A stretch of DNA of 32,000 bases from Geotalea uraniireducens Rf4 (GTDB lineage: Bacteria > Desulfobacterota > Desulfuromonadia > Geobacterales > Geobacteraceae), in NCBI RefSeq assembly GCF_000016745.1, contig NC_009483.1, forward strand, positions 3,510,001 through 3,542,000, given 5' to 3'. The notes below the pieces were generated by a model. It made no database searches. It saw nothing but the letters and a program-made list of their open reading frames with translations, and was not told the origin of the DNA. Shown piece after piece: positions 1-30,823 of this stretch (positions are counted from its first letter, which is position 1; every line of letters begins with the position of its first letter). The translations under genes were made by a program, and so were the position numbers.

Positions 1-3000
1 GAAGGAGATGAAGGCAAAGGAGCCGATCTGGACGATGCCGGTGAATGGGGGGCTGGCGGTGGTGATACGGTTGTTGATTACCTTGGTGCTGTCGATGATT
101 TCGTAGACCTTTTCTATGGTGCCGTCGGCGTTATAGATCTCGCTCGGGCGGTTGACAAAGACAGGGGTTGTGGGATCGAAGCCGTCCGGCAGCGGCATGG
201 AGAGATGGACCTCCTTCTGGAAGTCGATCCCGCCGGTGTCGATATTGAATGCGGAGAGATACGTGCCCGGTGCCGGTACCGGACTTGCCAGGCTGGCTTC
301 CGGCACAAAGGTCAGTTTGACAATCGTCGGCCCCGACAAAGCGCCTTCGGGGATATCGAGGATGCTCCCCCCCTCTCCTTCGACCTTGCCACCCTTGGCG
401 GTGACCAGGTAGTTGCCGTCATCGCTTTTGAAGGTGAGGTACGAGACGAGCGTTTGATTCCCAGAGTTATCCATGATGACGATCTTTATCTCGTCGCCCA
501 GTTGGCCTCTGACCTTGCCGGTAAAGGAGCCGTTGCCGGCCGGAACCACGGAAACTATCTCGCCGCTGGTGTCGTTGATGATGAGCACCGTACAGTCGGC
601 AGGGGAGCTCCCTTGGGTGGCGGTGATGCTGATGAACCCATCAGCATCGGGAAAGCTCGCGGTGATGCTCCCTGCCGGCGGCATGGGAGGCGGAGTGGTG
701 TTGCGGATGGTAAAGCCGGAGGTGACATCCTGGCCAAGGGGATATCCCTGGAGATCCTTGATCGTCCCGGCTATGGTGATGGTGTAACTCTGCTGCGACT
801 TGAGCAGATCTGCCGGGGTGAAGGTGACGACCTTGCCGTCAACGCTGAAGGTGAATACACCGGGGACAGCCGTTCCGGCTGAGTCGAGGAGTTTGAGAGT
901 TTGGGAGTTTATGGAGCTTTGATCCATGCTTTTGGAGAAGGTAATCACCACCGGCACGTTTGGCTGAATATTGATGCCCGTCGGCGACACTGAAACAACC
1001 GTCGGCAAGATCATCAGGATTTTGAGGTCAATGATTATTGCCTGGTTGGCCGCTATTGCGCCGGTAGCGCTCCCTTCGTCGTTCTTGTATAGATCCGTTG
1101 CAGTCGCGGTGACTGCGGCAACAGGCGCTGCCACAAGATATTTCCCGGTGGCTGCGGAAAGATCGATGAGCGAACCGTTGTCCGTCTTCACCAAAGCACC
1201 GTTGAAGGGGGCGTTGCTGGAATCGGTGACCGTGCCGGTGGCAAAGCCGATCTGCCCCTTGGCCTGGAGGAAGTAATAAACTCCGGAGGAGTTTATTGAG
1301 TTTGATGAGTTCAATGAGTTCTGGAGTTGGGAAGTTAACGGCTCTGTGGTGATGAAGGAGCCGTTCTGTCTGGCCAGGGCCACGAGCTTCAGCTTCTGAA
1401 CCCCCTTGACATCGATCTGCTTCGCCACGAGCAGCGGTAGAGACGGATTGAATCCGTCTGGCGCCGGGATGGAAATGGTCGCCGATTGCGCCAGGGTCTG
1501 CCGCGTCAGGTTCACCTCCACCACCTTGAGCAGAGTGAAATCGTTCCCCACGGCTCCGGTTGCGGCTGCCCCGTTTTTCGTCGCCACCGGTGTTGTCCGG
1601 GCGAGCGCCCCCTGCGGGATAACGAGAATGTTGCCGTCGGCATCCACCAGCCGGCCGCCATCGGCGCCCACCATGATGCCGCTGTCGGTTGCATCGGGTT
1701 TTACTATCTCTATGCCCACTTTTCCCAGTAAAAGATCGACCAGTGTGAAATCCCTGGACGGCGAAACGGGGAAGGTGGTGCGGAGTTCGACTCCGCTCAC
1801 TCCCCCACCGACTCCGCTCACTGCAGGCTGGGTTAATGCGCCGGCGGCAATGTTGGTTATGCATGGCTGGCGATAGAGAACGATATCCTGGGTGTAGGCG
1901 GAAGGCTCCACCTTGTCTCCAGATTTGAGATCGAATTTTTCCGTTACCCTGTTGTTGATAATGAAACCGGAAATGAATTGCGGCGCTGGGGTAACCCCGT
2001 CTTTAGCCGTCAGCAGCACCTCACCGGCTGCCTTGAGCCCTGTGGACGGTGGCGATGCCTGGGGAACGACCTTTCCGGCGGTGTTGATTGCGGCATAATC
2101 GAGAGATGCCGTGGATGCCGGGGCAAGGGGGTTGCCTGCTTCCGCCGCGGCAGGGGCGTTGGGAGCCGGGTCGGCAATGAGGAGCGCATACTGCCCGGCG
2201 GCGGTTATGTCTGCGCTTGCGCTCAGGCCGTCGGCGGCAATGGTTGCATTTCCTTTTGATCGCCACTGGTGGCTGGTGCTGTCGTAGGCGGCCAGCGTCA
2301 ACACGGTACCCGAGGCCTGGGCGAGAGGAACCTGCACCGGGATCTTCAGCGCAGCAGCGGAGGAAAAGCCCGTATAGAGAGCCGTCCCCGCCGTTGGATC
2401 AAGGAGACGGACATCGACGGCGGCCAGGGGGGACCAGCCGGGGGGCAACATGCCCGCCAGGCCCTGGTTGCTGACCGGTGTCAGACGGATGTCCGCCTGA
2501 TTGGAGAGAGCGCCGTTCGGTATTGTTAATTCAATTGCAGGGCGGGGTAACCCCGCCCCTACATCTACCCGTATGGTTCCGCCAATGGCATCAATAACAT
2601 TCTTTGTCCCATTGATTTTCGTCAGCCTGGCGTCGAGGGCGGTGGCCTTCTTTTCCGGCATGACCGGGACGATTCGTTCAACACTGGTGAAACCGGGCTT
2701 AATGACGCCGACGACTGCGTTTCCCGATTGGTTTTCGGTGAAGTAACCGCCATCGGCTGCCGTTGTCAGGGTCTTCACCTCACCATTCTCATCGGTTACC
2801 GTCACCTGGGCGTCGGCAAGGAGGAGCCCTCTTTCATCCTCAAGTACTTTTCCCTGCACATATCCCGGCCCCATGGCCGCCTGGCTTATTTTGACGCGTG
2901 TGGTTGCGCTCCCTTCGTTGCCGGCGACATCGATGCCTCTGGCCTGGAATACCACCTCGCTTCCAGTGTTCAAAGATGGTGAAAGCTTGTAGGAAACGGA

Positions 3001-6000
3001 TTCGACGATGGAAGGAATATTCCCTCCCGACCAGATGGGTACGCCGTCGGCCTTCAACTCCACAAGGGTGAGCTGTCTGTTGTCTGAAACATTCACCACT
3101 ATGGCCACATTGGCACCGGCCGCAGCCTCGGCAGGGCTCTGCAGAGACAGGACGGGCGACTGGCTGTCCAGCGAGACGCCGACACTGGCGCTCCCCTTGT
3201 TGCCGGCCCGGTCAGTAGCCTCTATGTTGAGGATGTTGTCGCCCTCGGCAAGTGTATAGACAACACTGAAGGTCTGATTGGTGACGGTGATGGCAGTGCC
3301 GTTGATAGTGGCGGTAGTATGGGGCTTGCTGATGATGCCGGAAACGGTTACCTGCGCTGTTTTGGTAATGGTGCCGGAAAGGGGCGCAGTGATGGTAACC
3401 ACGGGGGGTGTATTGTCGAGGGTGACGAGAACGGTTTTCGTGGCCTGATTTCCTGCAAGGTCCGTGGCAACAAGGGTGATGGTATTGAGCCCCGGTGTCA
3501 GGGTCAACGGCTGATCGAAATCGAGACTGCTCAAGGTTGCAGCCTGACCGTTGATGGTAAGGCCGGCAACCGGTTCGTCGATGTTACCTTTGACCGTAAC
3601 CTGCGGCGCACTGAAGAAGGCGTTTTCTGCCGGAACGGTGACGGTTATGACCGGCGCCCTGGTATCGAGAACGATGCCGAGGGGAACTGAGGGAATACTC
3701 TCGTTGCCTGCTGCGTCGGTGGCGATGGCAGTGTAGGAGTTTGTCCCCTCCGCCAGGGTAACGCCTGCCAGGGTGAAGCTACCCTGGGCGTCTGCGGTGA
3801 CGGTGCCGATGAGCAAACCTGCGGCAGATATTTTCACGCTTGATCCTGCTTCGGCAGTGCCGCCAAGGGTGACCCCGGCCACATTGGTCGGACTGGTGAG
3901 CGAATTGAGTACCGGAGCTTGCGGCGGCGTGGAGTCTAGCGTGACATTGACCGTTGCCGAACCGCTGTTGCCGGCCCGGTCGGTTGCTTTTACAGTAATG
4001 AAATTTGCTTCCTCGCTTAATGTATATGCGGCTGACCAGGTTTTGCCCGAGACGGTGGCAGTAATGGTGTTAACGGTAACCGTGGTGAATTCTTCACTGA
4101 CTGTTCCGGAAACGATTACCTGCTTATCCCTGGTGAGAAGTCCGGCTGCCGGTGTGACGATGGTCACCTGCGGGGGGGTGGTGTCCAGGTAAACGGGAAC
4201 AGAGGTGGTTCCCTCATTTCCGGCCAGATCCTTTGCCTTGACGACAAGCGTGTTCGCTCCCTCTGCAAGAGTTATTGTGAGACTGAACGAAAGCCCATCG
4301 ACAACGGCTGACGTATTATTCACCGTAACCGAAGTGACCGGTTCGTTGACCATACCGGTGACGGTGATCTGCGGCGTGTTGAGGAATGCATTTGCTGTCG
4401 GCGCGGTTATTATTATGACCGGCGGCGTAATGTCGAGAACAGCGCTGACCGGTGACGATGCGGAACTTTCGTTACCTGCCGCGTCGATGGCTGCAGCAGT
4501 GTATGTGTTAATCCCTTCAACAAGTGTTGCGCCCCCCAGACTGAACTTCCCTTCAGCATCGGCAGGCACTGTGCCGAAAATCACCCCGCCAGCGACCACC
4601 TTTACACTGGCATCCGCTTCGGCAGTGCCGCTGATCGTAACCGCAGCCAGGTTGGTTGGTGTGGTGAGTGGGTTGAGCAGCGGCGCGGCCGGTGGTGTGG
4701 AATCGAGGGTAACATTGACAGTGGCGCTGCCCGGGTTTCCGGTCCGGTCGGTCGCCTGAACGGTGATGCTGTTTGCACCTTCGCTCAGGGTGTAATCAAC
4801 CAGGGTCCAATCTTTTCCATTGACCTGGGCGGGAATATTGTTGACGGTAACCGCCGTTACATCTTCACTGACCGTTCCGGTCACGGTCACCTTGCTGTTT
4901 CGGGTCAGGAGTCCCGATGCCGGTGCGCTGATTGTGACAACCGGGGGCACGGTATCGGTAACGAAGCTCCAGATACGGCTGGCGACGTTGGCGGCGCGGT
5001 CGGCTACGCTGAGGCTGACAGCATGGCTGCCATCGGGCAACTTTGAGCCGGGGGCATAGGAGATGGCGGCGGCAGTTATGGACGCAGCAGCGGAGACATC
5101 GTTTCCATCCACCAAAAGCCGCACACTGGCCGTGTTGATGCCGGAGCCGTTGGTCTCGTCCGAATAGGAGGCGGAAATGACCGGCAGCGGGTTGTTGAGG
5201 AGAGCCCCGTCTGCCGGAGAAATGGCGGAGATGACCGGCGGTGTGCTGTCGCACCCCTTGCCGATGATCTCTATGATGAGAAAGGAGGGTCCCCTTTTCC
5301 GGATCTCGTCGATTTTCCGCGCCAGATCGTCCAGATGCCTGACGTTTTCATCGATGGCATGATTTATCCCTTCAAGCTCCTTAAGCAGTTCCGAGAGTTT
5401 TTCCCTCTTCTTTTCGTGATCTTTTTCTCTCTTGCTCGCTGACCGATCAAATGTGTCGAGGGCGGCCTTACAGGATCGGATGGCATCCTCTGTATCCCTT
5501 TTCGATTTTTCTATGCCCGTCCGGTCATGTTCGACCCAATCCTTTCCGATTTCGTGCCCGTTTTTCTCCCTATCCCAACCATCTTCTTTGTCATCTGCAT
5601 CGTCGTCTTCATCATCAAGGCTCTTACGTACCCCGGCCAGGTGCTCATCCCGATCGCCGTAACCTTTTTTAATGCGCTGGAATTCCAGGAGGATTCTTTC
5701 AAGCGTTTTGATGTCGTAGGGTGGTTTCAGGCCGGCAATTTCATTTTCCAGCAATTGCAGTTTGGCCAGATCCTTTTCCAGATCCGACTGCCTGGCCTGA
5801 TACTTTGCCAGCTGATCAAAATAGCCGTGGTGACCGCTTTTGAGTATCACCTTCAGCTCATTTAGCTGCTGTACGGCTACGAGTTTTTCAAAGGTCGCAA
5901 TCTTGTGTTTGAACTCGCTTTCTCCGGCAATCTTGCTGCCGTTTATGTAAATCCTTGCCGATTTGATCCGGGTATTTTTACTATCGCCGTTTTGCACCCG

Positions 6001-6225
6001 GACGAGCGCAAGGTCGGAGGGATTGCAGCGCTCGAAAGTGTCCGTATAAACGGTGGGCTTCCCCTTGAGCCGGTCATAGCGCTTCGGACCGAAGACCGTC
6101 ATGTCCGCTCCGGCAAAAGAGTAGGAAACGGATACGAGCAGCATCAGCAGAGCCACACCGAAAGCAGCCGCTGGCCGCGCATTGCGCAATGAATTCTTCA
6201 GAACTTGAAAGGGACTACCAGCCAT
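1..6225 (-). CDS. Giant secreted/cell-surface protein with tandem bacterial Ig-like domains (first 2075 codons; 3' end lies beyond the left window edge)
   Basis: Not in the ORF track because it has no stop in the window. The minus frame whose codons end at nt 1 is open throughout: every listed minus ORF in 1-6225 is in one of the other two frames. I hand-translated segments at 6225-6100, 4980-4921, 2880-2821 and 1020-961 without meeting a stop. ATG at 6225-6223 with GGAGAG 8 nt upstream. N-terminus MAGSPFQVLKNSLRNARPAAAFGVALLMLLVSVSYSFAGA is a signal/anchor. It is followed by a charged coiled-coil-like stretch (..SLDDEDDDADDKEDGWDREKNG..KREKDHEKKREKLSELLKELE..). Then come many ~85-95 aa modules of the form D(T/S)TPP..(V/I)TI..P......T..V.V.G.V.....V.VN.......L.EG.N.I.V.A.D.AGN....A.V.V.LD. 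A CarboxypepD_reg-like segment (GYVQGKVLEDERGLLLADAQVTVTDENGEVKTLTTAADGGYF) and an SbsA/Big_5-like segment (PTVVSVSPTGINIQPNVPVVITFSKSMDQSSINSQTLKLL) also occur. The plus-strand ORFs listed here are mirror-frame artefacts. Confidence 0.85.
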   Translation of the reverse strand, partial: MAGSPFQVLKNSLRNARPAAAFGVALLMLLVSVSYSFAGADMTVFGPKRYDRLKGKPTVYTDTFERCNPSDLALVRVQNGDSKNTRIKSARIYINGSKIAGESEFKHKIATFEKLVAVQQLNELKVILKSGHHGYFDQLAKYQARQSDLEKDLAKLQLLENEIAGLKPPYDIKTLERILLEFQRIKKGYGDRDEHLAGVRKSLDDEDDDADDKEDGWDREKNGHEIGKDWVEHDRTGIEKSKRDTEDAIRSCKAALDTFDRSASKREKDHEKKREKLSELLKELEGINHAIDENVRHLDDLARKIDEIRKRGPSFLIIEIIGKGCDSTPPVISAISPADGALLNNPLPVISASYSDETNGSGINTASVRLLVDGNDVSAAASITAAAISYAPGSKLPDGSHAVSLSVADRAANVASRIWSFVTDTVPPVVTISAPASGLLTRNSKVTVTGTVSEDVTAVTVNNIPAQVNGKDWTLVDYTLSEGANSITVQATDRTGNPGSATVNVTLDSTPPAAPLLNPLTTPTNLAAVTISGTAEADASVKVVAGGVIFGTVPADAEGKFSLGGATLVEGINTYTAAAIDAAGNESSASSPVSAVLDITPPVIIITAPTANAFLNTPQITVTGMVNEPVTSVTVNNTSAVVDGLSFSLTITLAEGANTLVVKAKDLAGNEGTTSVPVYLDTTPPQVTIVTPAAGLLTRDKQVIVSGTVSEEFTTVTVNTITATVSGKTWSAAYTLSEEANFITVKATDRAGNSGSATVNVTLDSTPPQAPVLNSLTSPTNVAGVTLGGTAEAGSSVKISAAGLLIGTVTADAQGSFTLAGVTLAEGTNSYTAIATDAAGNESIPSVPLGIVLDTRAPVITVTVPAENAFFSAPQVTVKGNIDEPVAGLTINGQAATLSSLDFDQPLTLTPGLNTITLVATDLAGNQATKTVLVTLDNTPPVVTITAPLSGTITKTAQVTVSGIISKPHTTATINGTAITVTNQTFSVVYTLAEGDNILNIEATDRAGNKGSASVGVSLDSQSPVLSLQSPAEAAAGANVAIVVNVSDNRQLTLVELKADGVPIWSGGNIPSIVESVSYKLSPSLNTGSEVVFQARGIDVAGNEGSATTRVKISQAAMGPGYVQGKVLEDERGLLLADAQVTVTDENGEVKTLTTAADGGYFTENQSGNAVVGVIKPGFTSVERIVPVMPEKKATALDARLTKINGTKNVIDAIGGTIRVDVGAGLPRPAIELTIPNGALSNQADIRLTPVSNQGLAGMLPPGWSPLAAVDVRLLDPTAGTALYTGFSSAAALKIPVQVPLAQASGTVLTLAAYDSTSHQWRSKGNATIAADGLSASADITAAGQYALLIADPAPNAPAAAEAGNPLAPASTASLDYAAINTAGKVVPQASPPSTGLKAAGEVLLTAKDGVTPAPQFISGFIINNRVTEKFDLKSGDKVEPSAYTQDIVLYRQPCITNIAAGALTQPAVSGVGGGVSGVELRTTFPVSPSRDFTLVDLLLGKVGIEIVKPDATDSGIMVGADGGRLVDADGNILVIPQGALARTTPVATKNGAAATGAVGNDFTLLKVVEVNLTRQTLAQSATISIPAPDGFNPSLPLLVAKQIDVKGVQKLKLVALARQNGSFITTEPLTSQLQNSLNSSNSINSSGVYYFLQAKGQIGFATGTVTDSSNAPFNGALVKTDNGSLIDLSAATGKYLVAAPVAAVTATATDLYKNDEGSATGAIAANQAIIIDLKILMILPTVVSVSPTGINIQPNVPVVITFSKSMDQSSINSQTLKLLDSAGTAVPGVFTFSVDGKVVTFTPADLLKSQQSYTITIAGTIKDLQGYPLGQDVTSGFTIRNTTPPPMPPAGSITASFPDADGFISITATQGSSPADCTVLIINDTSGEIVSVVPAGNGSFTGKVRGQLGDEIKIVIMDNSGNQTLVSYLTFKSDDGNYLVTAKGGKVEGEGGSILDIPEGALSGPTIVKLTFVPEASLASPVPAPGTYLSAFNIDTGGIDFQKEVHLSMPLPDGFDPTTPVFVNRPSEIYNADGTIEKVYEIIDSTKVINNRITTASPPFTGIVQIGSFAFISF
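3130..4956 (-). repeat. Intragenic tandem duplication of a ~256-aa three-Ig-domain supermodule (two full copies plus the first domain of a third)
   Basis: Module starts: DTVPPVVTISAP (D codon 4956-4954), DTTPPQVTIVTP (4185-4183) and DNTPPVVTITAP (3417-3415), giving periods of 771 and 768 nt. Corresponding domains align along their length, e.g. ATDRTGNPGSATVNVTLDSTPPAAPLLNPLTTPTN versus ATDRAGNSGSATVNVTLDSTPPQAPVLNSLTSPTN. Confidence 0.8.
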
Positions 6226-6275: not shown

Positions 6276-6576
6276 GCAGGAGCCATCCTATAACCACAAA
6301 GCATGCCAAAACGAAAGGCAGATGGAAACCATACAATAAACAGTTAATAACCAGCTGAATATAAACAATAATTTTTAAATTTAGTTTTCTGGAATTTCAG
6401 AGGTGAGAGAATGAATGGGAGGCGATTTTTTGTGGAGATATTGTAAAATTTTTTTACACATCGCCGTAGAAGCCCATGGGACAAGGCTTTACATTCTTGT
6501 AAAAATTTTTTACACATGTCCGTAAACCCTTGCCTGGCAAGGGTTTAGACTTATTGTAAAAAAATTTTACACTTGG
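6276..6576 (-). promoter_or_regulatory. Copy 1 of a 301-bp AT-rich upstream module with three TGT-(A/T)11-ACA palindromes and one GC palindrome
   Basis: Ungapped alignment with 17688-17988 (offset 11412). 17-bp sites at 6442-6458, 6498-6514 and 6555-6571. Palindrome AAACCCTTGCC-T-GGCAAGGGTTT at 6524-6546. Lies 50 nt 5' of the giant-protein ATG (6225). Confidence 0.6.
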
Positions 6577-6641
6577 CCGTTCGGCACTGGCCCATCCGGC
6601 CAAGAAGGTCTGCTCACCTTGTGGGGTGCCCTCTTTTCAGC

Positions 6642-8030: not shown

Positions 8031-9749
8031 TCACTCCTTATCCGGCAAGGGAAAGGTGAAAAAGAACGTGGCGCCCAGACCGACCGCCCCGTCTGCCCAG
8101 ACTCGGCCGGCATGTCGGTCGATGATCCTTTGGACGGTGGCGAGACCGATTCCGGTGCCGGGAAAATCACCGGAACGGTGCAAACGCTGGAACGGTTTGA
8201 AGATCCTTTGGGCATCCCGCATATCGAAACCGACCCCATTGTCGCGCACGAAGAACTGGACGGCCCCGTCGCTCGATTTCTGTCCGAACTCTATCCTGGG
8301 GTGATCATGTCTGGCAGTATACTTCCAGGCATTGCCGATCAGGTTTTCCAGAAGGATGCGGGCCAGGTGGGGATCGCACCATGCCACAATTCCCTCGACA
8401 AAGCGCCATTCCACCGCACGTTCAGGATTACGCAGACGGAGTTCGGCCATGATCGCATTGGCCAGGGCGCTCAAATCCACCTCCGCATAGCTCAGTTCGG
8501 TCCTGGACACCTTGAACAGCACCAGCATCGCCTCGATCAACTCTTCCATATTTTCGCAGCCTTGGCGGATGGCGTTGAGGAGGGTCAGGCCGGTATCGTC
8601 CATCTTGTCGCTGCAGATCTCGGCAAGGGCCTGGGCCGCCCCATACAGACCGGTAAGGGGGGCGCGCAGGTCGTGGGAGAGGGAATAGCTGAACGCCTCG
8701 AGTTCCCGGTTCGTGGCCTGCAGGTCGAGAGCCTGCTGGCACAGGCTGTCGTTCAGCTTGCGGATCTCCCCTTCGGACTTCTGCCGTTCCGATATGTCGC
8801 GCACCACGCAGACAATGCCGCCATCCTCCAGAACGGTGAGGGATATCTCCTGGGGAAACAGGGTGCCGTCCTTCTTCTGGCCGGTTGCCTCGCCGCGCCA
8901 CCCGCGCTGCTTGTCGCCCCCCTCGTAGATGAGAGACTCCAGCCGTTGCAGCTCGTCGGCAGGATAGAGGACATGCCAGCTCTTTCCCATCAGTTCAACC
9001 TGGGAAGGATAGCCATATATGGAGGCATGGGCCTTATTGAGGTAGAGGTATTCGCCGCCGGGATTCAGAATGGCGATGCCGTCCATCGAAGCCTCGATGG
9101 CCGCCAGCTGCTGCCTGAGGCGGTTTTCTGCGATCTTGCGGTCGGTGATGTCGCGCACCGATTCTATACCGGCGATGATCCGTCCCGCTGCATCCCGGAG
9201 CGGAGCCGATATTATCTCCACATGGCGGGGGCCCCGTTCATTGGGAGAGCTCGTTTCCCGCCGATGGAGAAGTCCGTCGGCAAAAGACTCGACGAGATTG
9301 CAGTCCGGGCAGACCGACGGCAGCTGATGATAAGCGGCATAGCAGTATTCCCCCACATGGTCTCCCATCACCTTCCTGGTGCCAGGGCTCTGGTAGAGGA
9401 TTTTCATGTCGGTGTCCTGGACGCTCACGGCATCGGGCATGGCGGCAAGGATTGCCTCGGAGCGGGCCTTTTCGGCGGCCAGGTTGGTCAGCGCTTCTTC
9501 CAGGGAAGAGGAGATGCGTTCCTGTGTCAGGGATTTCCGCCAGGCATAAATTATAAAGACAAGGAGAAAGAGCATCGACTGTATCCGGTATGCCAGTTCC
9601 TGCCCGTCAGGATGCAGGATTTGCTGAACAAAGCTACCTTCGTCGAAGAAAACCCCGTCCAGATAACAATCCGCCACCCAGAAAAACAGCATCAGGCCGA
9701 TTCCCGTCCCGACCAAGCTCCAGCGATTGTTCCGGCGTCGTGCCGCCAT
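8031..9749 (-). CDS. Membrane-anchored PAS-domain sensor histidine kinase
   Basis: The ORF track starts at a TTG (9752); the ATG at 9749 follows GGGAGG and is preferred. Two N-terminal TM segments, then two PAS-like regions (..DAVSVQDTDMKILYQSPG.., ..MDGIAILNPGGEYLYLNKAH..). H-box SHDLRAPL, N-box LIGNAWKYT, G1 DNGVGF, G2 GTGIGLATV. No response-regulator gene in the window. Confidence 0.9.
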   Translation of the reverse strand: MAARRRNNRWSLVGTGIGLMLFFWVADCYLDGVFFDEGSFVQQILHPDGQELAYRIQSMLFLLVFIIYAWRKSLTQERISSSLEEALTNLAAEKARSEAILAAMPDAVSVQDTDMKILYQSPGTRKVMGDHVGEYCYAAYHQLPSVCPDCNLVESFADGLLHRRETSSPNERGPRHVEIISAPLRDAAGRIIAGIESVRDITDRKIAENRLRQQLAAIEASMDGIAILNPGGEYLYLNKAHASIYGYPSQVELMGKSWHVLYPADELQRLESLIYEGGDKQRGWRGEATGQKKDGTLFPQEISLTVLEDGGIVCVVRDISERQKSEGEIRKLNDSLCQQALDLQATNRELEAFSYSLSHDLRAPLTGLYGAAQALAEICSDKMDDTGLTLLNAIRQGCENMEELIEAMLVLFKVSRTELSYAEVDLSALANAIMAELRLRNPERAVEWRFVEGIVAWCDPHLARILLENLIGNAWKYTARHDHPRIEFGQKSSDGAVQFFVRDNGVGFDMRDAQRIFKPFQRLHRSGDFPGTGIGLATVQRIIDRHAGRVWADGAVGLGATFFFTFPLPDKE

Positions 9750-10688: not shown

Positions 10689-11222
10689 ATGACATACACA
10701 CAAGGATTCAAATCCAGCCTGGTTCGCAAGATGGCCTGCCCTAATGGCGTCTCGGCCTCAGCTCTATCCCGAGAAGTGGGAATTCCCCAACAATCACTCT
10801 CTCGCTGGCTTCGAGACGCAAATGTCGTGAATGAATCTGGTAACTCCCCAATTTCTGAAGCACCATGGAGAACAATGTCCCCAAAGCGCCCACAAGACAA
10901 GTCTGCCGAAGAAAAGCTCAAAATCGTCATCGAAGCCGAGACGGTTGCCGAAGATCAACTTGGCGCCTTCCTGCGTCGCAATGGAATTCATGAAGCACAG
11001 TTACGCGAGTGGCGCGCCATGATGCTTTCGGGGCTGCAAAAACCGTCTCGGCCTTCCTCAAAAACATCAGAGGAAACTCGCAAAATTCATGCACTGGAAA
11101 AAGAATTACTGCGCAAAGATAAAGCATTGGCCGAGGCCGCCGCGATTTTGATCCTCAAAAAAAAAGTCCAATCGATCTGGGGGGGCGAGGACGAGCCCAC
11201 GGACAAGAGGAACGGCAGATGA
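10689..11222 (+). CDS. IS3-family transposase OrfA (HTH plus leucine-zipper-like region)
   Basis: 177 aa. HTH-like GVSASALSREVGIPQQSLSRWLRD. Coiled region IHALEKELLRKDKALAEAAAILILKKK ends at the slippery A-run. Confidence 0.85.
   Translation: MTYTQGFKSSLVRKMACPNGVSASALSREVGIPQQSLSRWLRDANVVNESGNSPISEAPWRTMSPKRPQDKSAEEKLKIVIEAETVAEDQLGAFLRRNGIHEAQLREWRAMMLSGLQKPSRPSSKTSEETRKIHALEKELLRKDKALAEAAAILILKKKVQSIWGGEDEPTDKRNGR
11157..11166 (+). other. Programmed -1 ribosomal frameshift site (A9G run) of the IS3-family element
   Basis: CTC AAA AAA AAA G in the orfA frame. The -1 frame (orfB frame; 11219 is 2 mod 3 versus 0 for orfA) is open across the site (..FDPQKKSPIDLGGRGRAHGQEERQM..), which would give an OrfAB fusion. 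Confidence 0.6.
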
Positions 11223-12244
11223 TCGGGCAACTTATTGAAGAGGCAACCCATTCCGGAGCGAGACTTGAATCGGCCGTTGTCGCCATCGGGCTGAGCATTC
11301 GCACGTTCCAGCGTTGGAATCTCCAGGATGACGGAGCAGATCGGCGACATGGGCCAGTCGCAGAACCGGCGAACAAGCTGGCTCCGTCGGAGCGGCAGAA
11401 CATCATCGATATTGCAAACTCCCCGGCGTTTCGGGATATTTCGCCGAAACAGATCGTGCCGCAATTGGCCGATCAGGGAATATACGTGGCGTCGGAATCG
11501 AGTTTCTACCGGGTGCTCAAAGACGATGGGCTGATGACTCACCGGGAACCCTCCCGGCCCGCCACCAGCCGCAAGCCAAAAGAACATGTGGCTACCGGTC
11601 CTTGCCAGGTCTGGTCATGGGACATCACCTACTTGAAGAGCCCGATTCTTGGGCAGTTCTTTTATCTCTACATGATCATGGATGTCTGGAGCCGCAAGAT
11701 CGTAGCGTCCACGGTGTTTTTAAAAGAATCCAATGACTATAGCGCCAGGCTGTTTCTGAAAGCCTGTATCAGGCTCGGCATCAATCCGGAAGGCCTGATT
11801 CTTCACTCCGACAACGGCGGCCCGATGAAAGGGGCGACCATGCTGGCTACTCTCCAGCGCCTGGGCGTAATTCCTTCCTTCAGCAGGCCACAGGTCAGTG
11901 ACGACAACCCTTTCTCAGAAGCGCTGTTCCGAACCATGAAATATAGACCTGGTTATCCGAGTCGGCCTTTTTCAAGTCTGGCAGCGGCCCAGACTTGGGT
12001 TGATGGTTTCGTCGCTTGGTATAACACGGAGCATCTGCACAGCGGCATTCGCTTCGTCACCCCGGACGATCGCCACTTCGGCCGGGAGAAAGCCATCCTG
12101 TTAAACCGCCGGGAGATATACGAGAAGGCCCGGCAACAAAACCCAAACCGCTGGTCAAAAAACATCCGAAACTGGGAGCCAGTGGAAACAGTTTATCTTA
12201 ACCCTGAACCAACGGCGGAAGTCGAACTTCTTGACGCCGCATAA
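11219..12244 (+). CDS. IS3-family transposase OrfB (DDE/rve integrase core)
   Basis: 341 aa. VWSWDITYL (first D), LHSDNGGPMKG (second D), VSDDNPFSEALFRTMKYRP (E region), WYNTEHLHSGIRFVTPDDRHFG tail. ATGA overlap with the orfA stop. Confidence 0.88.
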   Translation: MIGQLIEEATHSGARLESAVVAIGLSIRTFQRWNLQDDGADRRHGPVAEPANKLAPSERQNIIDIANSPAFRDISPKQIVPQLADQGIYVASESSFYRVLKDDGLMTHREPSRPATSRKPKEHVATGPCQVWSWDITYLKSPILGQFFYLYMIMDVWSRKIVASTVFLKESNDYSARLFLKACIRLGINPEGLILHSDNGGPMKGATMLATLQRLGVIPSFSRPQVSDDNPFSEALFRTMKYRPGYPSRPFSSLAAAQTWVDGFVAWYNTEHLHSGIRFVTPDDRHFGREKAILLNRREIYEKARQQNPNRWSKNIRNWEPVETVYLNPEPTAEVELLDAA

Positions 12245-12275
12245 AAATTCAACAGAGGCGACAACTACCTTGACA

Positions 12276-12892
12276 CCCGCCGCCAATGCCCGACCGCGCC
12301 CGTCCATGCTGATGGCGATGTTGTGCAAGGTGAGGACGCTGGTAAATGCATCGCTTGTGAACTGGCAGCCCTGGTCGGTGTTAAATATCTCAGGGCAACC
12401 AAACGTTCGAAGCGATTGCTCCAGGCAATCAACGCAGAACCCGCTGTCGAGTGAGTTCGATAATCGCCAGGCCAGTACCTTGCGCGAATACCAGTCGATC
12501 ACTGCAGCAAGGTACGCAAACCCGCGTGCCAGGCGGATGTAAGTGATGTCAGTACTCCAGACCTGATTTGGCCGGGACACGTTTAACCCTCTGAGCAGGT
12601 ACGGATAAACCTTGTGCTGAGGATGAGGACGGCTGGTATTTGGCCCTGGCGCCATGCCAGCCAACCCCAAGACCCCCATCAATCGCTGAACTCGCTTACG
12701 GTTGACGGGATGGCCTTTGGTGGCCAGATGCACCACCATTTTACGGCTACCGTAGAACGGGTGACAGGTATATTCAGCATCAATCAAAGCCAGCAACAGC
12801 AATTCCAATTCATCCGGTACGGCGACAAAATGGGGGGCATAAACAGTAGAACGGGCTACGCCCGCTAACTCGCATTGCCGGGTGAGCGCCAT
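12276..12892 (-). pseudogene. Truncated IS3-family transposase OrfB (lacks the segment that should carry the catalytic E)
   Basis: QVWSTDITYIRL (D), EIFNTDQGCQFTS (D), ISMDGRGRAL. After that the listed ORF 12155..12892 reads on into the terminal IR of the other IS (..AAGVKVVVASVEFL..), which is non-transposase sequence. Confidence 0.75.
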
Positions 12893-12927
12893 GGAACCTT
12901 GCAGATCTACCCAGCGCCTGCGGTCTG

Positions 12928-13221
12928 CTACTGGCCAATCCCGGACTTTTTTTTAAGCCAGTCAAGTTCCATCTTCAACCGCCCGATTTCCGAGTAGAGC
13001 CGCTCAGGGCTGGCGGAAGGATCATCGGGCTTGGGGCCGCGCTTGGAATCGAAAATTCCAGGTGCCTGTGCGATCAGGGCTTTCTTCCATTCCCCAACCT
13101 GGGTCGGATGGATAGCAAATTCCTGGGCGATTTCATTCAAGGTCTTCGTCCCTCGGATCGCTTCGAGTGCGACTTTTGCCTTGTGCTGACTGGTGAAACT
13201 TTTACGGCTCTTTTCGCTCAT
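12928..13221 (-). CDS. IS3-family transposase OrfA (HTH_Tnp_1-like)
   Basis: MSEKSRKSFTSQHKAKVALEAIRGTKTLNEIAQEFAIHPTQVGEWKK.. The internal ATG at 13221 has AAGGAG 7 nt upstream and is preferred over the ATG at 13251. It ends in LKKKSGIGQ across the slippery run. Confidence 0.8.
   Translation of the reverse strand: MSEKSRKSFTSQHKAKVALEAIRGTKTLNEIAQEFAIHPTQVGEWKKALIAQAPGIFDSKRGPKPDDPSASPERLYSEIGRLKMELDWLKKKSGIGQ
12946..12954 (-). other. Canonical IS3 A-AAA-AAG -1 frameshift motif
   Basis: Minus strand reads CTT AAA AAA AAG TCC. The orfB frame (12892) is -1 relative to orfA (13221-12892=329, which is 2 mod 3). Confidence 0.6.
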
Positions 13222-13286
13222 TGCCTGCTCCTTTTTATCGCAGGCTACCATCTTAAACTATTGTCCGAAAATTGGGGTCCACTATA

Positions 13287-14223
13287 GTTCAATAGAAGCT
13301 TTAAGCCGAAACCTTGTCCGCAGAAAGAACGGAAACTGGGGATAAAGGCGGATAAACCCTTTCATCTTTGCTTTTGCCTGATCCGCTTTGATCATCTTTT
13401 TCCGCCTGTACTGCGTTCAAATCCCAGGTTCTGTTTTATCCGCCTCTAGATGCTTTCCGCCTGATCAACTTCAGGGCGTTCAATAGAAGCTTTAAGCCGA
13501 AACCTTGTCCGCAGAAAAAACGGAAACTGGGGATAAAGGCGGATAAACCCTTTCATCTTTGCTTTTGCCTGATCCGCTTTGATCATCTTTTTCCGCCTGT
13601 ACTGCGTTCAAATCCCAGGTTCTGTTTTATCCGCCTCTAGATGCTTTCCGCCTGATCAACTTCAGGGCGTTCAATAGAAGCTTTAAGCCGAAACCTTGTC
13701 CGCAGAAAAAACGGAAACTGGGGATAAAGGCGGATAAACCCTTTCATCTTTGCTTTTGCCTGATCCGCTTTGATCATCTTTTTCCGCCTGTACTGCGTTC
13801 AAATCCCAGGTTCTGTTTTATCCGCCTCTAGATGCTTTCCGCCTGATCAACTTCAGGGCGTTCAATAGAAGCTTTAAGCCGAAACCTTGTCCGCAGAAAA
13901 AACGGAAACTGGGGATAAAGGCGGATAAACCCTTTCATCTTTGCTTTTGCCTGATCCGCTTTGATCATCTTTTTCCGCCTGTACTGCGTTCAAATCCCAG
14001 GTTCTGTTTTATCCGCCTCTAGATGCTTTCCGCCTGATCAACTTCAGGGCGTTCAATAGAAGCTTTAAGCCGAAACCTTGTCCGCAGAAAAAACGGAAAC
14101 TGGGGATAAAGGCGGATAAACCCTTTCATCTTTGCTTTTGCCTGATCCGCTTTGATCATCTTTTTCCGCCTGTACTGCGTTCAAATCCCAGGTTCTGTTT
14201 TATCCGCCTCTAGATGCTTTCCG
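13287..14223. repeat. Tandem array of a 191-bp unit, 4.9 copies, near-identical
   Basis: Unit starts (GTTCAATAGAAGC) at 13287, 13478, 13669, 13860 and 14051, exactly 191 apart. The last copy stops at 14223. The only difference I can see is G at 13327 in copy 1 versus A in the others. No ORF of 60 aa or more in any frame; 191 is not a multiple of 3. Confidence 0.95.
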
Positions 14224-14622
14224 TCTATTATCAAAGGATCTACGTCTAACCTGCGGCTGCGGACCAAAGTTCAGCAGTAGACCAACCTCAATTTCCGTTG
14301 CTCTGAGATAATTGAACAACTGCGATTCATGCTCCGGGGCAAGTTGTTTTACGGCCTTGACTTCTACAATGACTTTCCCCTCGACGAGAATGTCGGCAAA
14401 ATAGTCACCAACCGGATTTTCTCCGTAATAGACCGTAATCGGCCATTGAGCGGTTGCTGTAATCTGTCTCTTTGCCAGCTCCAACAGGAGTGCATTCTCA
14501 TACACCTTTTCCAGAAAGCCGAATCCAAGCGTGTTGTAGACAGTGTAGAAACAGCAGATAATGGCATCAGTCAATTCCCGATGCTTGTAGATGTCTTCGT
14601 CATTACACCCCCTGTCCGTCAT
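14200..14622 (-). CDS. GxxExxY-family protein (PD-(D/E)XK nuclease-like fold)
   Basis: 140 aa. Family-typical layout: LTDAIICCFYTVYNTLGFGFLEKVYENALLLEL, VGDYFADILVEGKVIVEVKAV, HESQLFNYLRATEIEVGLLLNFG. The last 7 codons plus the stop lie inside the 191-bp repeat. Confidence 0.75.
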   Translation of the reverse strand: MTDRGCNDEDIYKHRELTDAIICCFYTVYNTLGFGFLEKVYENALLLELAKRQITATAQWPITVYYGENPVGDYFADILVEGKVIVEVKAVKQLAPEHESQLFNYLRATEIEVGLLLNFGPQPQVRRRSFDNRRKASRGG

Positions 14623-14636
14623 GGCCCCCCGCCCCC

Positions 14637-14686
14637 CTATTCTGCCCTATTCTGCCCTATTCTGCCCTGTTCTGCCCTATTCTGCC
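14637..14686. repeat. 10-bp tandem repeat CTATTCTGCC x5 (fourth copy CTGTTCTGCC)
   Basis: Read directly. It begins 15 nt upstream of the GxxExxY ATG (14622). On the coding strand it reads GGCAGAATAG x5. Confidence 0.95.
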
Positions 14687-14831
14687 CAATAGCAAAATGC
14701 CTGCGTGTCGGACCCACACATTTCACTTGCCGATTCCCGAGGAGTTCCGGGACGGAGTTCCGGGGACGCCATACTTATTCACCGATAATGATTGGCATGG
14801 CGTCTCCGAAATTCCCCGAATGCTCCGTTCG

Positions 14832-16229
14832 TTACATCAATCCAAGAGACGTCTTGCTGAACACCTTGGCGTAGTAATCGCTATCAGACTTGATAAACAC
14901 AATGATGCTGTTCGGGGTATTGAATACTTGTTTCGGCTCGGCAACGATATCGATGGACATTGTTGTGAAGAGGGTGTCCTGCTTGATGACCAGTAGCTTC
15001 TTGATATTGTCGCTATTCAGCATGTAGAGGTTGCCGAGATCATCGTCGGATACCAAGTCGATGAAAGTATGGCCGAGATTACCGGCATAGGTGATATCGT
15101 CAGCGGCTGCAGGCGATGAGATGAACATGTTGCCGGACCCGGTGGCAATACGAGTGTCGCTATTCATTACCCGAATCGGAGCTCCGAAACCGTAGTCACC
15201 GTGGTAACGGGAATCGCCAATGCTATCGATCGTCCCTGTCGACGCGTTGATTGCCAGATGATGCATGTCCGCCGGCGACAGCCCGCTGTCAAGGGCATAG
15301 GCCATGCCGGTGGCCTGATTGAAGGTGAAATTGCTGAGCGGATACCAATAGCTCTTGCTGGTGACGATTTGTCCGTTTTCCAGGTTGATGGTCTCATAGG
15401 TATTCGATGGCCCCCAGCCGGTTCCATTGCCGACCAGCACAAACTTGGAAGAAACGGGTACCAGTGCATTGATGGAGATCAGAGAATCAGCCAGCAACGT
15501 GAGGCTTTCGTCGGCTATGTTCAGCCGATAGATCTTGCCGGTGGAATACCCCAGCAAAAGGGAGCCGCCGGCCGTCTCGACTGCCAACGCCTGCGGCGAA
15601 GCCTGCAGCGGGATGTCCTTTTCGCGCACCAGCGTATCGGCGTAAACAGCCAGCACTCCGGCGCTGCTGTCGAAAATGTAAAACTTCTTATTCACCTTGT
15701 CCTGCAGGATCGTGCTGACAAACTGACGGATCTTGGAATAACCGGGGAGTTTGTTGAAGCCGACGGACAGGCTGACGCTGCCTGTCGTCGCGGGATCGAC
15801 TACGGCACTGGCCGGATCGAAGAGAATTTCCGCGGCGACTTGGGCACCGGCAACGACATTGACGTCGACAGAACCGGTATAGATAAGCGCCTGGCCATTG
15901 TAAGCATTGGCCGTTACGCGCCAGTACCCCTTTGCCAGGCCTGTAACTGTGCCGGATGCCACATTGTTTGCTACACTCAGATCCGTTACAATATCCGTAT
16001 AACCGTCTCGAGACAGAGTGGCGCTCACTGCAGTAATCGTATTGGTGCTAGTCGTCATGGTACTAAATGCGATTTTGGCTGCAGAGCTGGCGTTATGTTG
16101 CAGCGTTGCAAGGTCGATTTGCAGACTTACGGTTCCGGTTGCATTGTTAGCTGTTGACGCCCCTGTCCCACAACCAGCCATGATTCCCAAGGCAAACATA
16201 AGCAGCAGATAGACTGAAATCTTTTTCAT
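14832..16229 (-). CDS. Lipoprotein of unknown function (N-terminal Ig-like region, C-terminal beta-propeller-like region)
   Basis: The listed ORF starts at 16385, but the internal ATG at 16229 has GAGGAGGAGGG upstream and gives MKKISVYLLLMFALGIMAGC (signal peptide plus lipobox). The 52 upstream codons run through a palindromic repeat. No family recognised. Confidence 0.7.
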   Translation of the reverse strand: MKKISVYLLLMFALGIMAGCGTGASTANNATGTVSLQIDLATLQHNASSAAKIAFSTMTTSTNTITAVSATLSRDGYTDIVTDLSVANNVASGTVTGLAKGYWRVTANAYNGQALIYTGSVDVNVVAGAQVAAEILFDPASAVVDPATTGSVSLSVGFNKLPGYSKIRQFVSTILQDKVNKKFYIFDSSAGVLAVYADTLVREKDIPLQASPQALAVETAGGSLLLGYSTGKIYRLNIADESLTLLADSLISINALVPVSSKFVLVGNGTGWGPSNTYETINLENGQIVTSKSYWYPLSNFTFNQATGMAYALDSGLSPADMHHLAINASTGTIDSIGDSRYHGDYGFGAPIRVMNSDTRIATGSGNMFISSPAAADDITYAGNLGHTFIDLVSDDDLGNLYMLNSDNIKKLLVIKQDTLFTTMSIDIVAEPKQVFNTPNSIIVFIKSDSDYYAKVFSKTSLGLM

Positions 16230-16480: not shown

Positions 16481-17155
16481 TCAGAACCGGAACGAGACCC
16501 CAAAAAGCACATTGTGCATCGAAAGCGACGCGGTTACCTTCTTGGCAATGTTGTCACTATTTCCAATTGCAGCATTAAAAAGGTATGTCGTTGTATCCTG
16601 AAGGACGTTGACCCTGTAATATGCATAGCGGTATTCACTAAATAAGGCGATATGCTTTGAGAGTTGCAAAGCAATCCCGGCCGGAACTTGAAAACCAGCG
16701 TTAATTCCCCAGCTGTTGATTTTATCAGTTGGCGGGCCATTGTCGGCAGAGGCATAGGTGTACAAAGATATACTGGGGCCGATACCGATGTAGGGTTGCA
16801 ACATCCCTTGGGGAATGTTTTCGTCACTTAGAAGTGGAAGCCGAAACATAACCATGGGGGTCAGCGGCGCGAGATCGAATCTGGCGGTAGCTCCCTTTGC
16901 GTGCATGGAAGAAAAGTCGCCTCCCACACCAAGCCAGCGTTGTTTTGTGAACCAGTAGCCTCCTCTTACACCGTATGTGACGTCTCTTTCAAAACCAACT
17001 TTTTTGCTGGTAGAGGCAACATTGCTGTTTATCGTCACGGTCGCATTATCAGTAAAAGATGGCCCGGCGTATAAATCAATAAAGCCTTCGGCAAAAGACG
17101 GTATCGCAGACATTACGAGCAGTGATAAAACGACGCCAATGATTCCAATTTTCAT
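16481..17155 (-). CDS. Outer-membrane beta-barrel protein (OmpA-beta-barrel/OmpW-like porin family)
   Basis: Signal peptide MKIGIIGVVLSLLVMSAIPSFA. Alternating hydrophobic beta-strand pattern, aromatic girdle residues, and a C-terminal ..LFGVSFRF ending in Phe. Confidence 0.8.
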   Translation of the reverse strand: MKIGIIGVVLSLLVMSAIPSFAEGFIDLYAGPSFTDNATVTINSNVASTSKKVGFERDVTYGVRGGYWFTKQRWLGVGGDFSSMHAKGATARFDLAPLTPMVMFRLPLLSDENIPQGMLQPYIGIGPSISLYTYASADNGPPTDKINSWGINAGFQVPAGIALQLSKHIALFSEYRYAYYRVNVLQDTTTYLFNAAIGNSDNIAKKVTASLSMHNVLFGVSFRF

Positions 17156-17268
17156 AATTTCCCACCTATAGCAATGACATCAATATTATTTAGACCAACG
17201 AATAAGCCCAGCCGCGCGGCGCCGGCGGGAGCACCTTGTTGGGAAATCTGCGCGCCCTCTCGCACGGA

Positions 17269-17676
17269 CTAGGTAGAACCCCTGAGTGCCGCTGCCAGAG
17301 TCGCTGGTTCCGCCACACTCACCATGAGTTGTCGCAAGCGGACGGGAAATCCCATGACGTACCCGCGCTGGGTCGGCGTCAGGTCGATGGTCAGGATTCC
17401 CTGTCCCGATCCGTTCACCAGCCATCGACCTGCGAATCCATGCACCCCACGACTCAGCGGGCGCCCATGCGTTTCTGCGGCTAAGGCGACAGCTGCTCTC
17501 GGAAAGCAAGCTCGAAATGCCCAGCCCATTCGCACTCGGATCTCCTCGCTGTTCACCTCCACATAGGAGCTCGAAGGGCGCAGAAACAAGGCACTCGACA
17601 GAATTCCGTACCATGGGTCAAACTGAATGGGAAATCGCTGTGGGCTCAATGGTCTCCTCCCGATAAATGACCGCAT
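17269..17676 (-). CDS. Hypothetical protein (about 135 aa)
   Basis: The listed ORF 17269..17748 extends into the conserved 301-bp module, so the ATG at 17676 (MRSFIGRRPLSPQRF..) is more likely, although its SD is weak. The sequence is protein-like (..VEVNSEEIRVRMGWAFRACFPR..RWLVNGSGQGILTIDL..). The overlapping ORF 17186..17614 is Arg/Ser/Gly-rich junk. Confidence 0.45.
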   Translation of the reverse strand: MRSFIGRRPLSPQRFPIQFDPWYGILSSALFLRPSSSYVEVNSEEIRVRMGWAFRACFPRAAVALAAETHGRPLSRGVHGFAGRWLVNGSGQGILTIDLTPTQRGYVMGFPVRLRQLMVSVAEPATLAAALRGST

Positions 17677-17687
17677 GTTTGGCGGCA

Positions 17688-17988
17688 GCAGGAGCCATTC
17701 TATAACCACATTGCATGCCAAAGCGGAAGGCAGATTGAAATTATTCAATAAACTATCAATAACCAGCTGAATATAAACAATACTTTTAAATTTGGCGTTC
17801 CGGAGGTTCGGGGGTGAGGGTTTTGGGTAGGGGAGATTCCTTGCCGCACTTATTGTAAAAAATTTTTACACATCGGCGTAGAAGCCCATGGGACAAGGGT
17901 TTACATTCTTGTAAAAAATTTTTACACATACCTGTAAACCCTTGTCTGGCGAGGGTTTAGACTTATTGTAAAAAAATTTTACACTTGG
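17688..17988 (-). promoter_or_regulatory. Copy 2 of the 301-bp AT-rich upstream module
   Basis: Ungapped alignment with 6276-6576. TGT-(A/T)11-ACA sites at 17854-17870, 17910-17926 and 17967-17983. GC palindrome at 17936-17958. Lies 11 nt 5' of the 17676 ATG. Confidence 0.6.
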
Positions 17989-17999
17989 AAGCAGTAATG

Positions 18000-18061
18000 T
18001 CACCCTCCCCCAACCCCTCCCATCAAGGGAGGGGAGCGGAGCTTTAAAGTCCCCTCGCCCC
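18000..18061. repeat. REP-like element, type A (C-tract/G-tract hairpin, CCCTCCC-N5/6-GGGAGGG)
   Basis: TCACCCTCCCCCAACCCCTCCCATCAAGGGAGGGGAG.. is almost identical to the left arm of 29031-29114. Confidence 0.85.
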
Positions 18062-18113
18062 ATGCGGACCCAAATTGCGGGCCTAAAGGACTTGGTAATT
18101 ATCAATATACCAC

Positions 18114-18207
18114 GTAGGGGCGACAGCACGGCTTCATCGTGCTTCGCCCTTGTTCGCAACGCCAACAAAGACGGGCGAAGCAGATAAGGCGTTTGCTTCG
18201 CCCCTAC
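18114..18207. repeat. REP-like element, type B (GTAGGGGCG...CGCCCCTAC long hairpin)
   Basis: Ends GTAGGGGCGA / TCGCCCCTAC are inverted. Internal GCTTCGCCC / GGGCGAAGC pairing. Confidence 0.85.
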
Positions 18208-18254
18208 GATCAAAAACGGTATATCATGAAATTCTATGTCCCTAAAGGAGAGGG

Positions 18255-23703: not shown

Positions 23704-23829
23704 GTAGGGGCGGGGTCTCCCCGCCCACTCCCCGCCCACTCCCCGCCCACTCCCCGCCCACTCCCCGCCCACTCCCCGCCCACTCCCCGCCCAGCAACCC
23801 CGCCCGGGGCACGGCAACCGTGCCCCTAC
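23704..23829. repeat. REP-like element, type B, expanded by an internal microsatellite
   Basis: Ends GTAGGGGC ... GCCCCTAC. It overlaps the stop codon (23826-23828) of the Fe-S oxidoreductase gene. Confidence 0.85.
23719..23794. repeat. 11-bp microsatellite CCCCGCCCACT x6 plus a partial seventh unit
   Basis: Units start at 23719, 23730, 23741, 23752, 23763 and 23774. The partial unit CCCCGCCCAG starts at 23785. Confidence 0.95.
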
Positions 23830-30782: not shown

Positions 30783-30823
30783 TAATATATAAAATGTTTA
30801 CAATAATTTAAACGAGGTCGATC

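Follow-up and report, generated by a model that had tools for sequence, protein, structure and literature searches.

Several described sigma-54 (RpoN) systems place palindromic activator sites upstream of the promoters that they serve, and they are the references for a 301-bp module that occurs twice, at 6276-6576 and 17688-17988, in a 32,000-nt stretch of Geotalea uraniireducens Rf4 (NC_009483.1, positions 3,510,001 to 3,542,000; hereafter the window). The upstream activator sequence (UAS) of NifA is TGT-N10-ACA and activates a sigma-54 promoter from afar, IHF assisting the DNA looping, and GlrR (QseF) of Enterobacteriaceae has three palindromic TGTCN10GACA sites together with IHF upstream of the sigma-54 promoter of glmY. 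For PEP-CTERM genes, a 17-nt motif 1 ending in TTTACA and sometimes repeated was described upstream of a sigma-54 motif, at a distance of 32-92 nt (mean 63), was assigned to PrsR and was found in Proteobacteria including Geobacter sulfurreducens and G. metallireducens (Haft et al., 2006; PMC1569441). In Desulfovibrio vulgaris, TGT-N11-ACA 17-mers were reported for DVUA0057, the PrsR orthologue, and for DVU0110 (Kazakov et al., 2015; PMC4641369), while RpoN of Geobacter itself is documented, with TTGGCACGGTTTTTGCT as the G. sulfurreducens consensus (PMC2725144). An earlier note, made from the letters of this DNA, had likened its sites to those of NifA and had not recognised them as a described motif; the spacer within the site is 11 nt in all sites, which sets them apart from the NifA UAS, and their class is already contained in PMC1569441 and PMC4641369, the comparison with motif 1 being made against its published description rather than its logo.

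Based on the analysis reported here, we consider it probable that each copy of the module is a complete sigma-54 promoter region on the minus strand, with the sigma-54 response regulator of the geopeptide locus as its most likely activator. The evidence, all of it computational, consists of the anatomy of the module, its recurrence, the rank of its promoter element, the co-localisation with geopeptide loci and the covariation of half-site and recognition helix. The two copies align without any gap at a constant offset of 11412 nt, and their identity is distributed in segments, with 91 of 106 positions (86%) identical in 6276-6381 and 128 of 138 (93%) in 6439-6576, versus 20 of 57 (35%) in 6382-6438, where random offsets of the segment give 24% (standard deviation 6%). 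The coordinates, the offset and the divergence of a middle segment at unchanged length, all claimed before, are therefore borne out. Directly outside the block, identity between the copies is only 25% and 20%, and the boundaries are sharp. Because the flanking genes of each copy are both on the minus strand, the module is read on that strand, and it then runs from three palindromes (57 and 56 bp apart) through a spacer, an AT-rich block and a -24/-12 element to a 5′ untranslated region (UTR) of about 45-60 nt. The palindromes are six TGTAAA-W5-TTTACA sites, three per copy; the pattern TGTAAAWWWWWTTTACA, at one mismatch or fewer, matches the window six times, exactly at these sites (0.00 expected, 100 shuffles), and Tandem Repeats Finder takes those of copy 1 as units of a 56-bp repeat (2.5 copies, 6439-6580). 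Their A/T runs, A4T7, A5T6 and A7T4 in copy 1 and A6T5, A6T5 and A7T4 in copy 2, agree with the earlier listing, as do their positions and spacing.

The promoter element was assessed by a position weight matrix (PWM) built from the 87 D. vulgaris promoters listed in PMC4641369 and applied to both strands of the window. In this ranking of about 64,000 positions, the elements of copy 1 and copy 2 come first and third, and the corresponding element is first in the related loci L004, L006, L010, L012 and L013 and second in L007 and L015. The frequency of matches scoring 11 bits or more is 8.9e-5 per position, so that the chance of one falling in the 21-nt interval where the elements lie is about 0.002 per array. 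In both copies the element reads TTGGCATGC(TT/AA)TGTGGT, it agrees with the G. sulfurreducens RpoN consensus at 13 of 17 positions, and TGGCAYN5GTGRT is present in the window only at the two modules (0.14 expected). The GG, the TG core, their spacing and the score in the range of known promoters are thus all those of a -24/-12 element, and the palindromic sites stand upstream of the -24 at a distance that fits the roughly 80-250 bp of a sigma-54 enhancer. With this element 143 bp downstream of the proximal site, and with the arrays in related genomes described below, the earlier proposal of a shared enhancer-type UAS array defining a small regulon gains support as a prediction.

One scan of species-representative genomes and one of metagenomes, using site-pair and site-plus-flank patterns, together with loci from later look-ups, gave 13 TGTAAA-type arrays in Geotalea/Geobacter DNA (genomes and metagenomes), each with 3-4 sites at 56-57 bp: the two of the window (win1, win2), L012, L010, L007, L004 (= L017, L018), L013, L006, L015, L019, two in L023, and L027. 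Twelve of them precede a target gene, all oriented toward it, with a -24/-12 element on the gene strand whose GG is 139-152 bp from the centre of the proximal site; the gap between site and element is 129-142 nt at all arrays. The half-sites TGTAAA/TTTACA are invariant in 36 of the 37 sites tabulated from 12 arrays (the table leaves aside that of G. daltonii), the exception being one degenerate site. All 37 end in TTTACA, their central five bases are A/T and rarely C or G, and their flanks are asymmetric and oriented relative to the gene. The earlier note had taken TGT/ACA, spacer length and AT-richness to be what is kept; length and AT-richness stand, but the conserved part extends to the full half-sites. 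Five arrays (win1, L012, win2, L010, L007) carry the full module including the proximal block, whereas the rest share the array and promoter type only. L012 and L010, both from one metagenome, occupy the orthologous positions of win1 and win2, the L010 module being directly upstream of a lipoprotein gene; that of L007 precedes a gene for an exported Kelch-repeat protein. It would seem that a whole enhancer-promoter cassette has been copied between genes, and that only its sites, its promoter-proximal block and the length of its spacer are conserved.

Several further observations concern these loci. Compared with copy 1 of the window, the 5′ UTR in L012 is longer by an insertion of about 110 bp (about 8725-8835), and a tRNA gene stands upstream of the module where the window has an S41 peptidase gene. 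Short-read assemblies of the same sequence (L001, L002, L003) stop inside the module, at about window positions 6548 and 17981, which fits a genome that has more than one copy of the module. The GC-richer palindrome noted earlier between sites 2 and 3 is present; in a DNA-folding test of 25 inter-site spacers, a strong hairpin was found only in win1 and L010 (z of -5.4 and -4.5), and the hairpin was rejected as a functional unit since most arrays are without one. The only part of it that recurs in other arrays is the arm adjoining the middle site (GGGTTTAC on the gene strand), and the recurring motif CAAGGGTTTACNGG stands 7-8 nt ahead of the following site. In the AT-rich block, an IHF-like core is conserved in all five full modules, the IHF core consensus being WATCARNNNNTTR (PMC7962754).

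The activator is suggested by the genomic company of the arrays. Those lacking the proximal block all sit just past an ABC_sub_bind gene, in a locus that comprises a TIGR04229 peptide (33-35 aa), a TIGR04280 radical-SAM maturase, a HAMP histidine kinase, a convergent response regulator (Sigma54_activat plus HTH_8), and a divergent TonB-dependent receptor with a (periplasmic) binding-protein gene, after which the array follows. This gene set occurs with an array in G. toluenoxydans, in G. daltonii FRC-32 (CP001390.1) and in the metagenome or metagenome-assembled genome (MAG) loci L006, L015, L019 and L023; in L013, a short partial contig, only the binding-protein gene is seen beside the array. 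With Geomonas sp. RF6 and Oryzomonas japonica, there are nine loci in which an array is found within or next to the geopeptide locus, where it closely follows either the TonB-receptor/binding-protein genes or the maturase gene. Scores above the family cutoffs place only the related loci L017 and L019 formally in the geopeptide system (peptide 40.5 and 43.1 bits, cutoff 30; maturase 710 bits, cutoff 400). Genes for enhancer-binding proteins (EBPs) adjoin arrays in L017, L019, L021, L022, L023 and L027, and the local regulator reaches none of the NCBIfam cutoffs for NtrC, AtoC and PrsR. In L023, the second array, with three sites, stands upstream of the regulator gene itself. In Geomonas sp. RF6, the sigma-54 promoter of the regulator gene is preceded by two sites separated by 56 bp, and further sites stand upstream of a 15.3-bit promoter past the maturase gene; O. 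japonica has three sites after the maturase gene and upstream of an alpha-amylase gene. In these two genomes the locus is rearranged and the half-site is TGTTAA-W5-TTAACA, and the predicted recognition helix of the regulator is LLGVCRQTV, versus LLGI(S/T)RPTL in the TGTAAA loci.

Home arrays and full modules also occur together, L006 with L007 in the single binned MAG DAIEGL01, and L015 with L010 and L012 in the metagenome Ga0074193; these shared occurrences speak, though only indirectly for the window's genome, for membership of the window copies in the same regulon. Predicted targets at the home loci include a phosphatase plus receiver, a patatin operon and the alpha-amylase, so that the surface-protein regulon proposed earlier holds for the surface and exported targets but is too narrow as a general description. 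The G. uraniireducens regulator P0251 (65% identical) was set aside as a paralogue in a different two-component locus that lacks sites, and so were L024 and L025, which are disrupted or non-geopeptide loci, also lacking sites. The regulator genes' own canonical sigma-54 promoters are strong, at 16.0-17.3 bits (L017 13042-13060, L019 13383-13401, L027 9933-9951). The literature searched for geopeptide, TIGR04229 and TIGR04280 contained no relevant paper.

The mechanism that we infer, in terms of binding, looping, signal and transcription, would be as follows. The three 17-bp palindromes at 56/57 bp spacing may form an enhancer, in which a phosphorylated response regulator of the NtrC family would occupy each site as a dimer by means of its Fis-type helix-turn-helix. 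The A-run/T-run centre would probably be read by its shape, a narrow and bent minor groove, as is established for the DNA-binding domains of the Fis/NtrC type, and such a readout would explain why length and AT content are kept despite the drifting switch point. Three dimers could assemble into one hexamer, and the stretch of about 130 bp made of the spacer, fixed in length and free in sequence, and the AT-rich IHF-like block would form the loop that brings the hexamer to sigma-54 RNA polymerase, which would be held in a closed complex at the -24/-12 element until ATP hydrolysis opens the promoter. For the window copies, the predicted regulon would consist of the gene for a giant Ig-repeat protein and the operon of a 127-aa protein, an outer-membrane protein and a lipoprotein.

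Several findings weigh against this proposal. A distance of 56/57 bp corresponds to 5.3-5.4 helical turns, which does not put the sites on one face of the DNA; the mode of hexamer assembly is therefore speculative and would require some DNA wrapping. The module scores of 11-14.7 bits fall in the lower part of the training distribution (range 7.9-21.1 bits, 10th percentile 11.3, median 16.6), the home promoter of L023 reaches only 8.9 bits, and the -12 is GTGG, GTGA or GTTC across the arrays, not the canonical TTGC with its GC dinucleotide. The C at -12 is also missing in 9 of the 87 training promoters, that is, it is usual and not obligatory, and we read the module elements as apparently real but intrinsically weak sigma-54 promoters. 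Matches to the IHF core at one mismatch are no more frequent in the window than expected by chance. As to the activator, no EBP, rpoN or geopeptide gene lies within the window, and the presence of the locus in the source genome is deduced from contigs of one metagenome and a MAG. No recognisable sites occur at the regulator's own promoter in G. toluenoxydans, G. daltonii or L019, the covariation of helix and half-site is based on two clades only, and the literature PrsR site has the same TTTACA end, so that motif identity does not separate the regulators.

This last point leads to the main rival explanation, namely that the sigma-54 enhancer is as described above and is activated by PrsR (TIGR02915), which is the response regulator of the PEP-CTERM box, or by another paralogous EBP, with the geopeptide proximity being incidental or a matter of cross-regulation. 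The TTTACA-ending 17-nt motif upstream of a sigma-54 motif is known in Geobacter (PMC1569441), the D. vulgaris sites of DVUA0057 and DVU0110 resemble TGTAAAAAAAGCTGACA and share one motif (PMC4641369), and TIGR02915 is the third-best NCBIfam match of the geopeptide-locus regulator. We nevertheless consider this explanation unlikely: the match amounts to 317 and 311 bits for the array-adjacent regulators, versus a cutoff of 502.6, and the gap to the -24 exceeds the published 32-92 nt. The PEP-CTERM domain (TIGR02595) is absent from the nine target proteins tested, a set that does not extend to the C-terminus of the giant protein, which lies outside both the window and L012. PrsR would moreover leave the arrays beside nine geopeptide loci and the joint change of half-site and helix unexplained. 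A PrsR-like spacing was seen elsewhere, in L016 (4557-4680; the unrelated MAG contig JAEEGG010000437.1), where two TGTAAA-type 17-mers 24 bp apart stand about 50 nt upstream of TTTGGCACAACGATTGTTA (13.3 bits), followed by a gene for an exported protein.

It is very unlikely that the palindromes are operators of a dimeric sigma-70-type regulator (CRP/FNR-, XRE- or Fur-like), with a sigma-70 promoter inside the module. Such designs exist, since a Clostridia MAG (L005 2073-2137) has a triple TGTAAA-N5-TTTACA at 24-bp spacing immediately before a good sigma-70 promoter and an XRE gene, with a similar triple repeat at the same spacing in a Treponema MAG (L008 7468-7532), and one weak sigma-70 match overlaps the distal site of copy 2. 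However, sigma-70 matches in the module are at chance level (1 found, 0.8 expected) with none common to both copies, the sites are 215-345 bp away from the start codons, and the element conserved at a fixed distance from the array is of the -24/-12 type. The L005 and L008 repeats look like convergent operator design unrelated to sigma-54; they and the matches in L009 (an uncultured bacterium), L011 and L014 were discarded, being either sigma-70 operators or AT-rich matches with no relation to the module.

A non-autonomous mobile or repetitive element (miniature inverted-repeat transposable element or repetitive extragenic palindrome (REP)-like) of no regulatory role, or a structured RNA or terminator, is hardly credible: the module is repeated, breaks short-read assemblies, has a strong hairpin in copy 1 and has insertion sequences between its copies, but its boundaries (GCAGGAGCC... 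and ...TTTACACTTGG) show neither terminal inverted repeat nor target-site duplication, plasmid and phage BLAST gave no match, all arrays have the same orientation toward the gene that follows, most of them lack the hairpin, and Rfam has no match in the whole window (gathering thresholds) or in 16900-18300 (E<=1). A plain mobile element, which the earlier note had named as the finding that would speak against regulation, is thus not indicated by the boundaries, the orientation or the BLAST results; a riboswitch or small-RNA (sRNA) reading was dropped on the Rfam result, and scans of both copies for sigma-70 promoters and terminators stayed at chance level.

The features of the two copies and their predicted targets are collected below. 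The product of the gene downstream of copy 1 carries Glucodextran_B, Big_13 and other domains, and its L012 orthologue exceeds 2863 aa. Here the earlier claim that both copies lie 5′ of genes for exported proteins is right; for copy 2 it probably needs refining: the first gene encodes a 127-aa protein in which a signal peptide is not obvious (judged by eye), and the outer-membrane protein and lipoprotein genes follow, probably in one operon with it. This small protein has 1194 homologues (126-134 aa, 70-93% identity) on contigs labelled Burkholderiales to Desulfoferrobacter and matches no Pfam or NCBIfam family. Its GC-rich (about 60-64%) open reading frame (ORF) shows a coding signature, with codon-position differences of 24/15/50 to L026, and L010 lacks the gene at the orthologous place. 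On the identical contig, the public annotation calls another frame at this locus, of 142 aa.

Table. Predicted regulatory features of the two module copies and the genes downstream of them (window coordinates).
Feature	Position	Strand	Remark
Copy 1 distal activator site (predicted)	6555..6571	-	TGTAAAATTTTTTTACA on gene strand
Copy 1 middle activator site (predicted)	6498..6514	-	57 bp from distal site
Copy 1 proximal activator site (predicted)	6442..6458	-	centre 143 bp upstream of -24 GG
Copy 2 distal activator site (predicted)	17967..17983	-	
Copy 2 middle activator site (predicted)	17910..17926	-	
Copy 2 proximal activator site (predicted)	17854..17870	-	143 bp from -24 GG
Perfect palindrome AAACCCTTGCC-T-GGCAAGGGTTT, 11-bp arms	6524-6546	.	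between distal and middle sites, copy 1
Copy 1 spacer, site array to proximal block	6382..6438	-	57 bp; length conserved, sequence not
Copy 1 IHF-like core ATTCAGCTGGTTA in conserved AT-rich block	6348..6360	-	one mismatch to WATCARNNNNTTR
Copy 2 IHF-like core ATTCAGCTGGTTA	17760..17772	-	
Copy 1 sigma-54 -24/-12 element TTTGGCATGCTTTGTGGTT	6292..6310	-	PWM 14.7 bits, window rank 1
Copy 2 sigma-54 -24/-12 element TTTGGCATGCAATGTGGTT	17704..17722	-	PWM 11.8 bits, window rank 3
Target gene 1: product of >2075 aa with signal peptide and Ig-like repeats; gene continues beyond the window edge	1..6225	-	downstream of copy 1
First gene after copy 2: conserved 127-aa protein, function unassigned	17269..17649	-	TTG start 4 nt past GGGAGGAG
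Outer-membrane beta-barrel gene (OMP_b-brl, PF13505)	16481..17155	-	after 127-aa gene
Lipoprotein gene (MKKISVYLLLMFALGIMAGC...)	14832..16229	-	after 127-aa gene

Other repeats and mobile genes of the window were recorded alongside. Between the module copies, at 10689-13251, lie two transposase sets, a plus-strand one of HTH_Tnp_1 with rve and a minus-strand one of HTH_28 with rve; the ORFs overlap at 12155-12244. An insertion sequence and a PDDEXK_3 gene enclose 4.9 copies of a 191-bp unit (13287-14226), which are 99-100% identical, and about 100 nt of the unit are 71% similar to the intergenic region upstream of the L019 regulator gene (13543-13641). Two 84-nt direct repeats, 95% identical and each with an internal hairpin (30550-30633 and 31917-32000), flank a 346-aa gene (HTH, HATPase_c, DUF4325/STAS-like), just upstream of which a 22-bp repeat (GGTTTACAAATAATCACAAAAT) occurs 2.6 times (30751-30807). 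GC-rich REP-like palindromes (TCACCCTCCCCCA..CCCTCCCATCAAGGGAGGGGAGC) are intergenic in the CoA-transferase/beta-oxidation cluster (18000-18067, 28077-28114, 29031-29093), and similar ones adjoin the arrays in L010 and L006. Perfect tandem repeats of 11 bp (x7, CTCCCCGCCCA, 23717-23793) and 10 bp (x5.3, CCCTATTCTG, 14635-14687) stand at gene boundaries.

If the assignment to the geopeptide regulator is correct, the module would provide the first predicted output for a computationally named and unstudied system, in the form of a DNA site, a promoter class and concrete targets, namely the giant Ig-repeat protein, the outer-membrane/lipoprotein operon and the phosphatase or patatin operon beside the locus. 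The block would then point to a small signalling regulon, and the array in the cultured G. daltonii FRC-32 makes the circuit directly testable. A wider reading, which we offer tentatively and regard as rather doubtful, is that the geopeptide locus serves Geobacteraceae for signalling by a peptide, either between cells or from the environment. The TonB-dependent receptor, the binding protein and the kinase would together sense the peptide in its radical-SAM-modified form, and the regulator, as one hexamer on three sites that are about one third of a turn out of phase and wrap the DNA, would switch on a mobile promoter cassette copied before genes for giant adhesin- or toxin-like and outer-membrane proteins.

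Compared with the described systems, the module differs from NifA in its spacer of 11 instead of 10 nt, in its candidate activator, a two-component response regulator and not a GAF-domain NifA, and in the lack of nif genes, and from GlrR in half-site and spacing, in the sRNA target of the latter and in the unrelated signalling input. The D. vulgaris sites of DVUA0057 and DVU0110 resemble it by TGT-N11-ACA with an A/T-rich centre, by sigma-54-dependent genes, by their location 140-550 bp upstream of them and by one motif being common to two paralogous EBPs (PMC4641369), whereas their half-sites are TGTCGG/TGACA, no regular tandem spacing was reported, and regulon and taxon (Desulfovibrionales) are others. 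PrsK/PrsR shares with the module the 17-nt, TTTACA-ending and sometimes repeated motif upstream of a sigma-54 -24/-12 element, the predicted NtrC-family binder and the occurrence in Geobacter. In contrast to it, the arrays reported here have a fixed 3-4 units at 56/57 bp, a gap of 129-142 nt and GTGR instead of GC at -12, and they go with the geopeptide locus and the regulator encoded there, whose score does not reach the cutoff of the PrsR model, with targets that lack PEP-CTERM. Therefore, the site class and the transcription mechanism, which is textbook sigma-54, are already known, and what is new is a regulon of a known kind and its assignment to an uncharacterised peptide/two-component locus.

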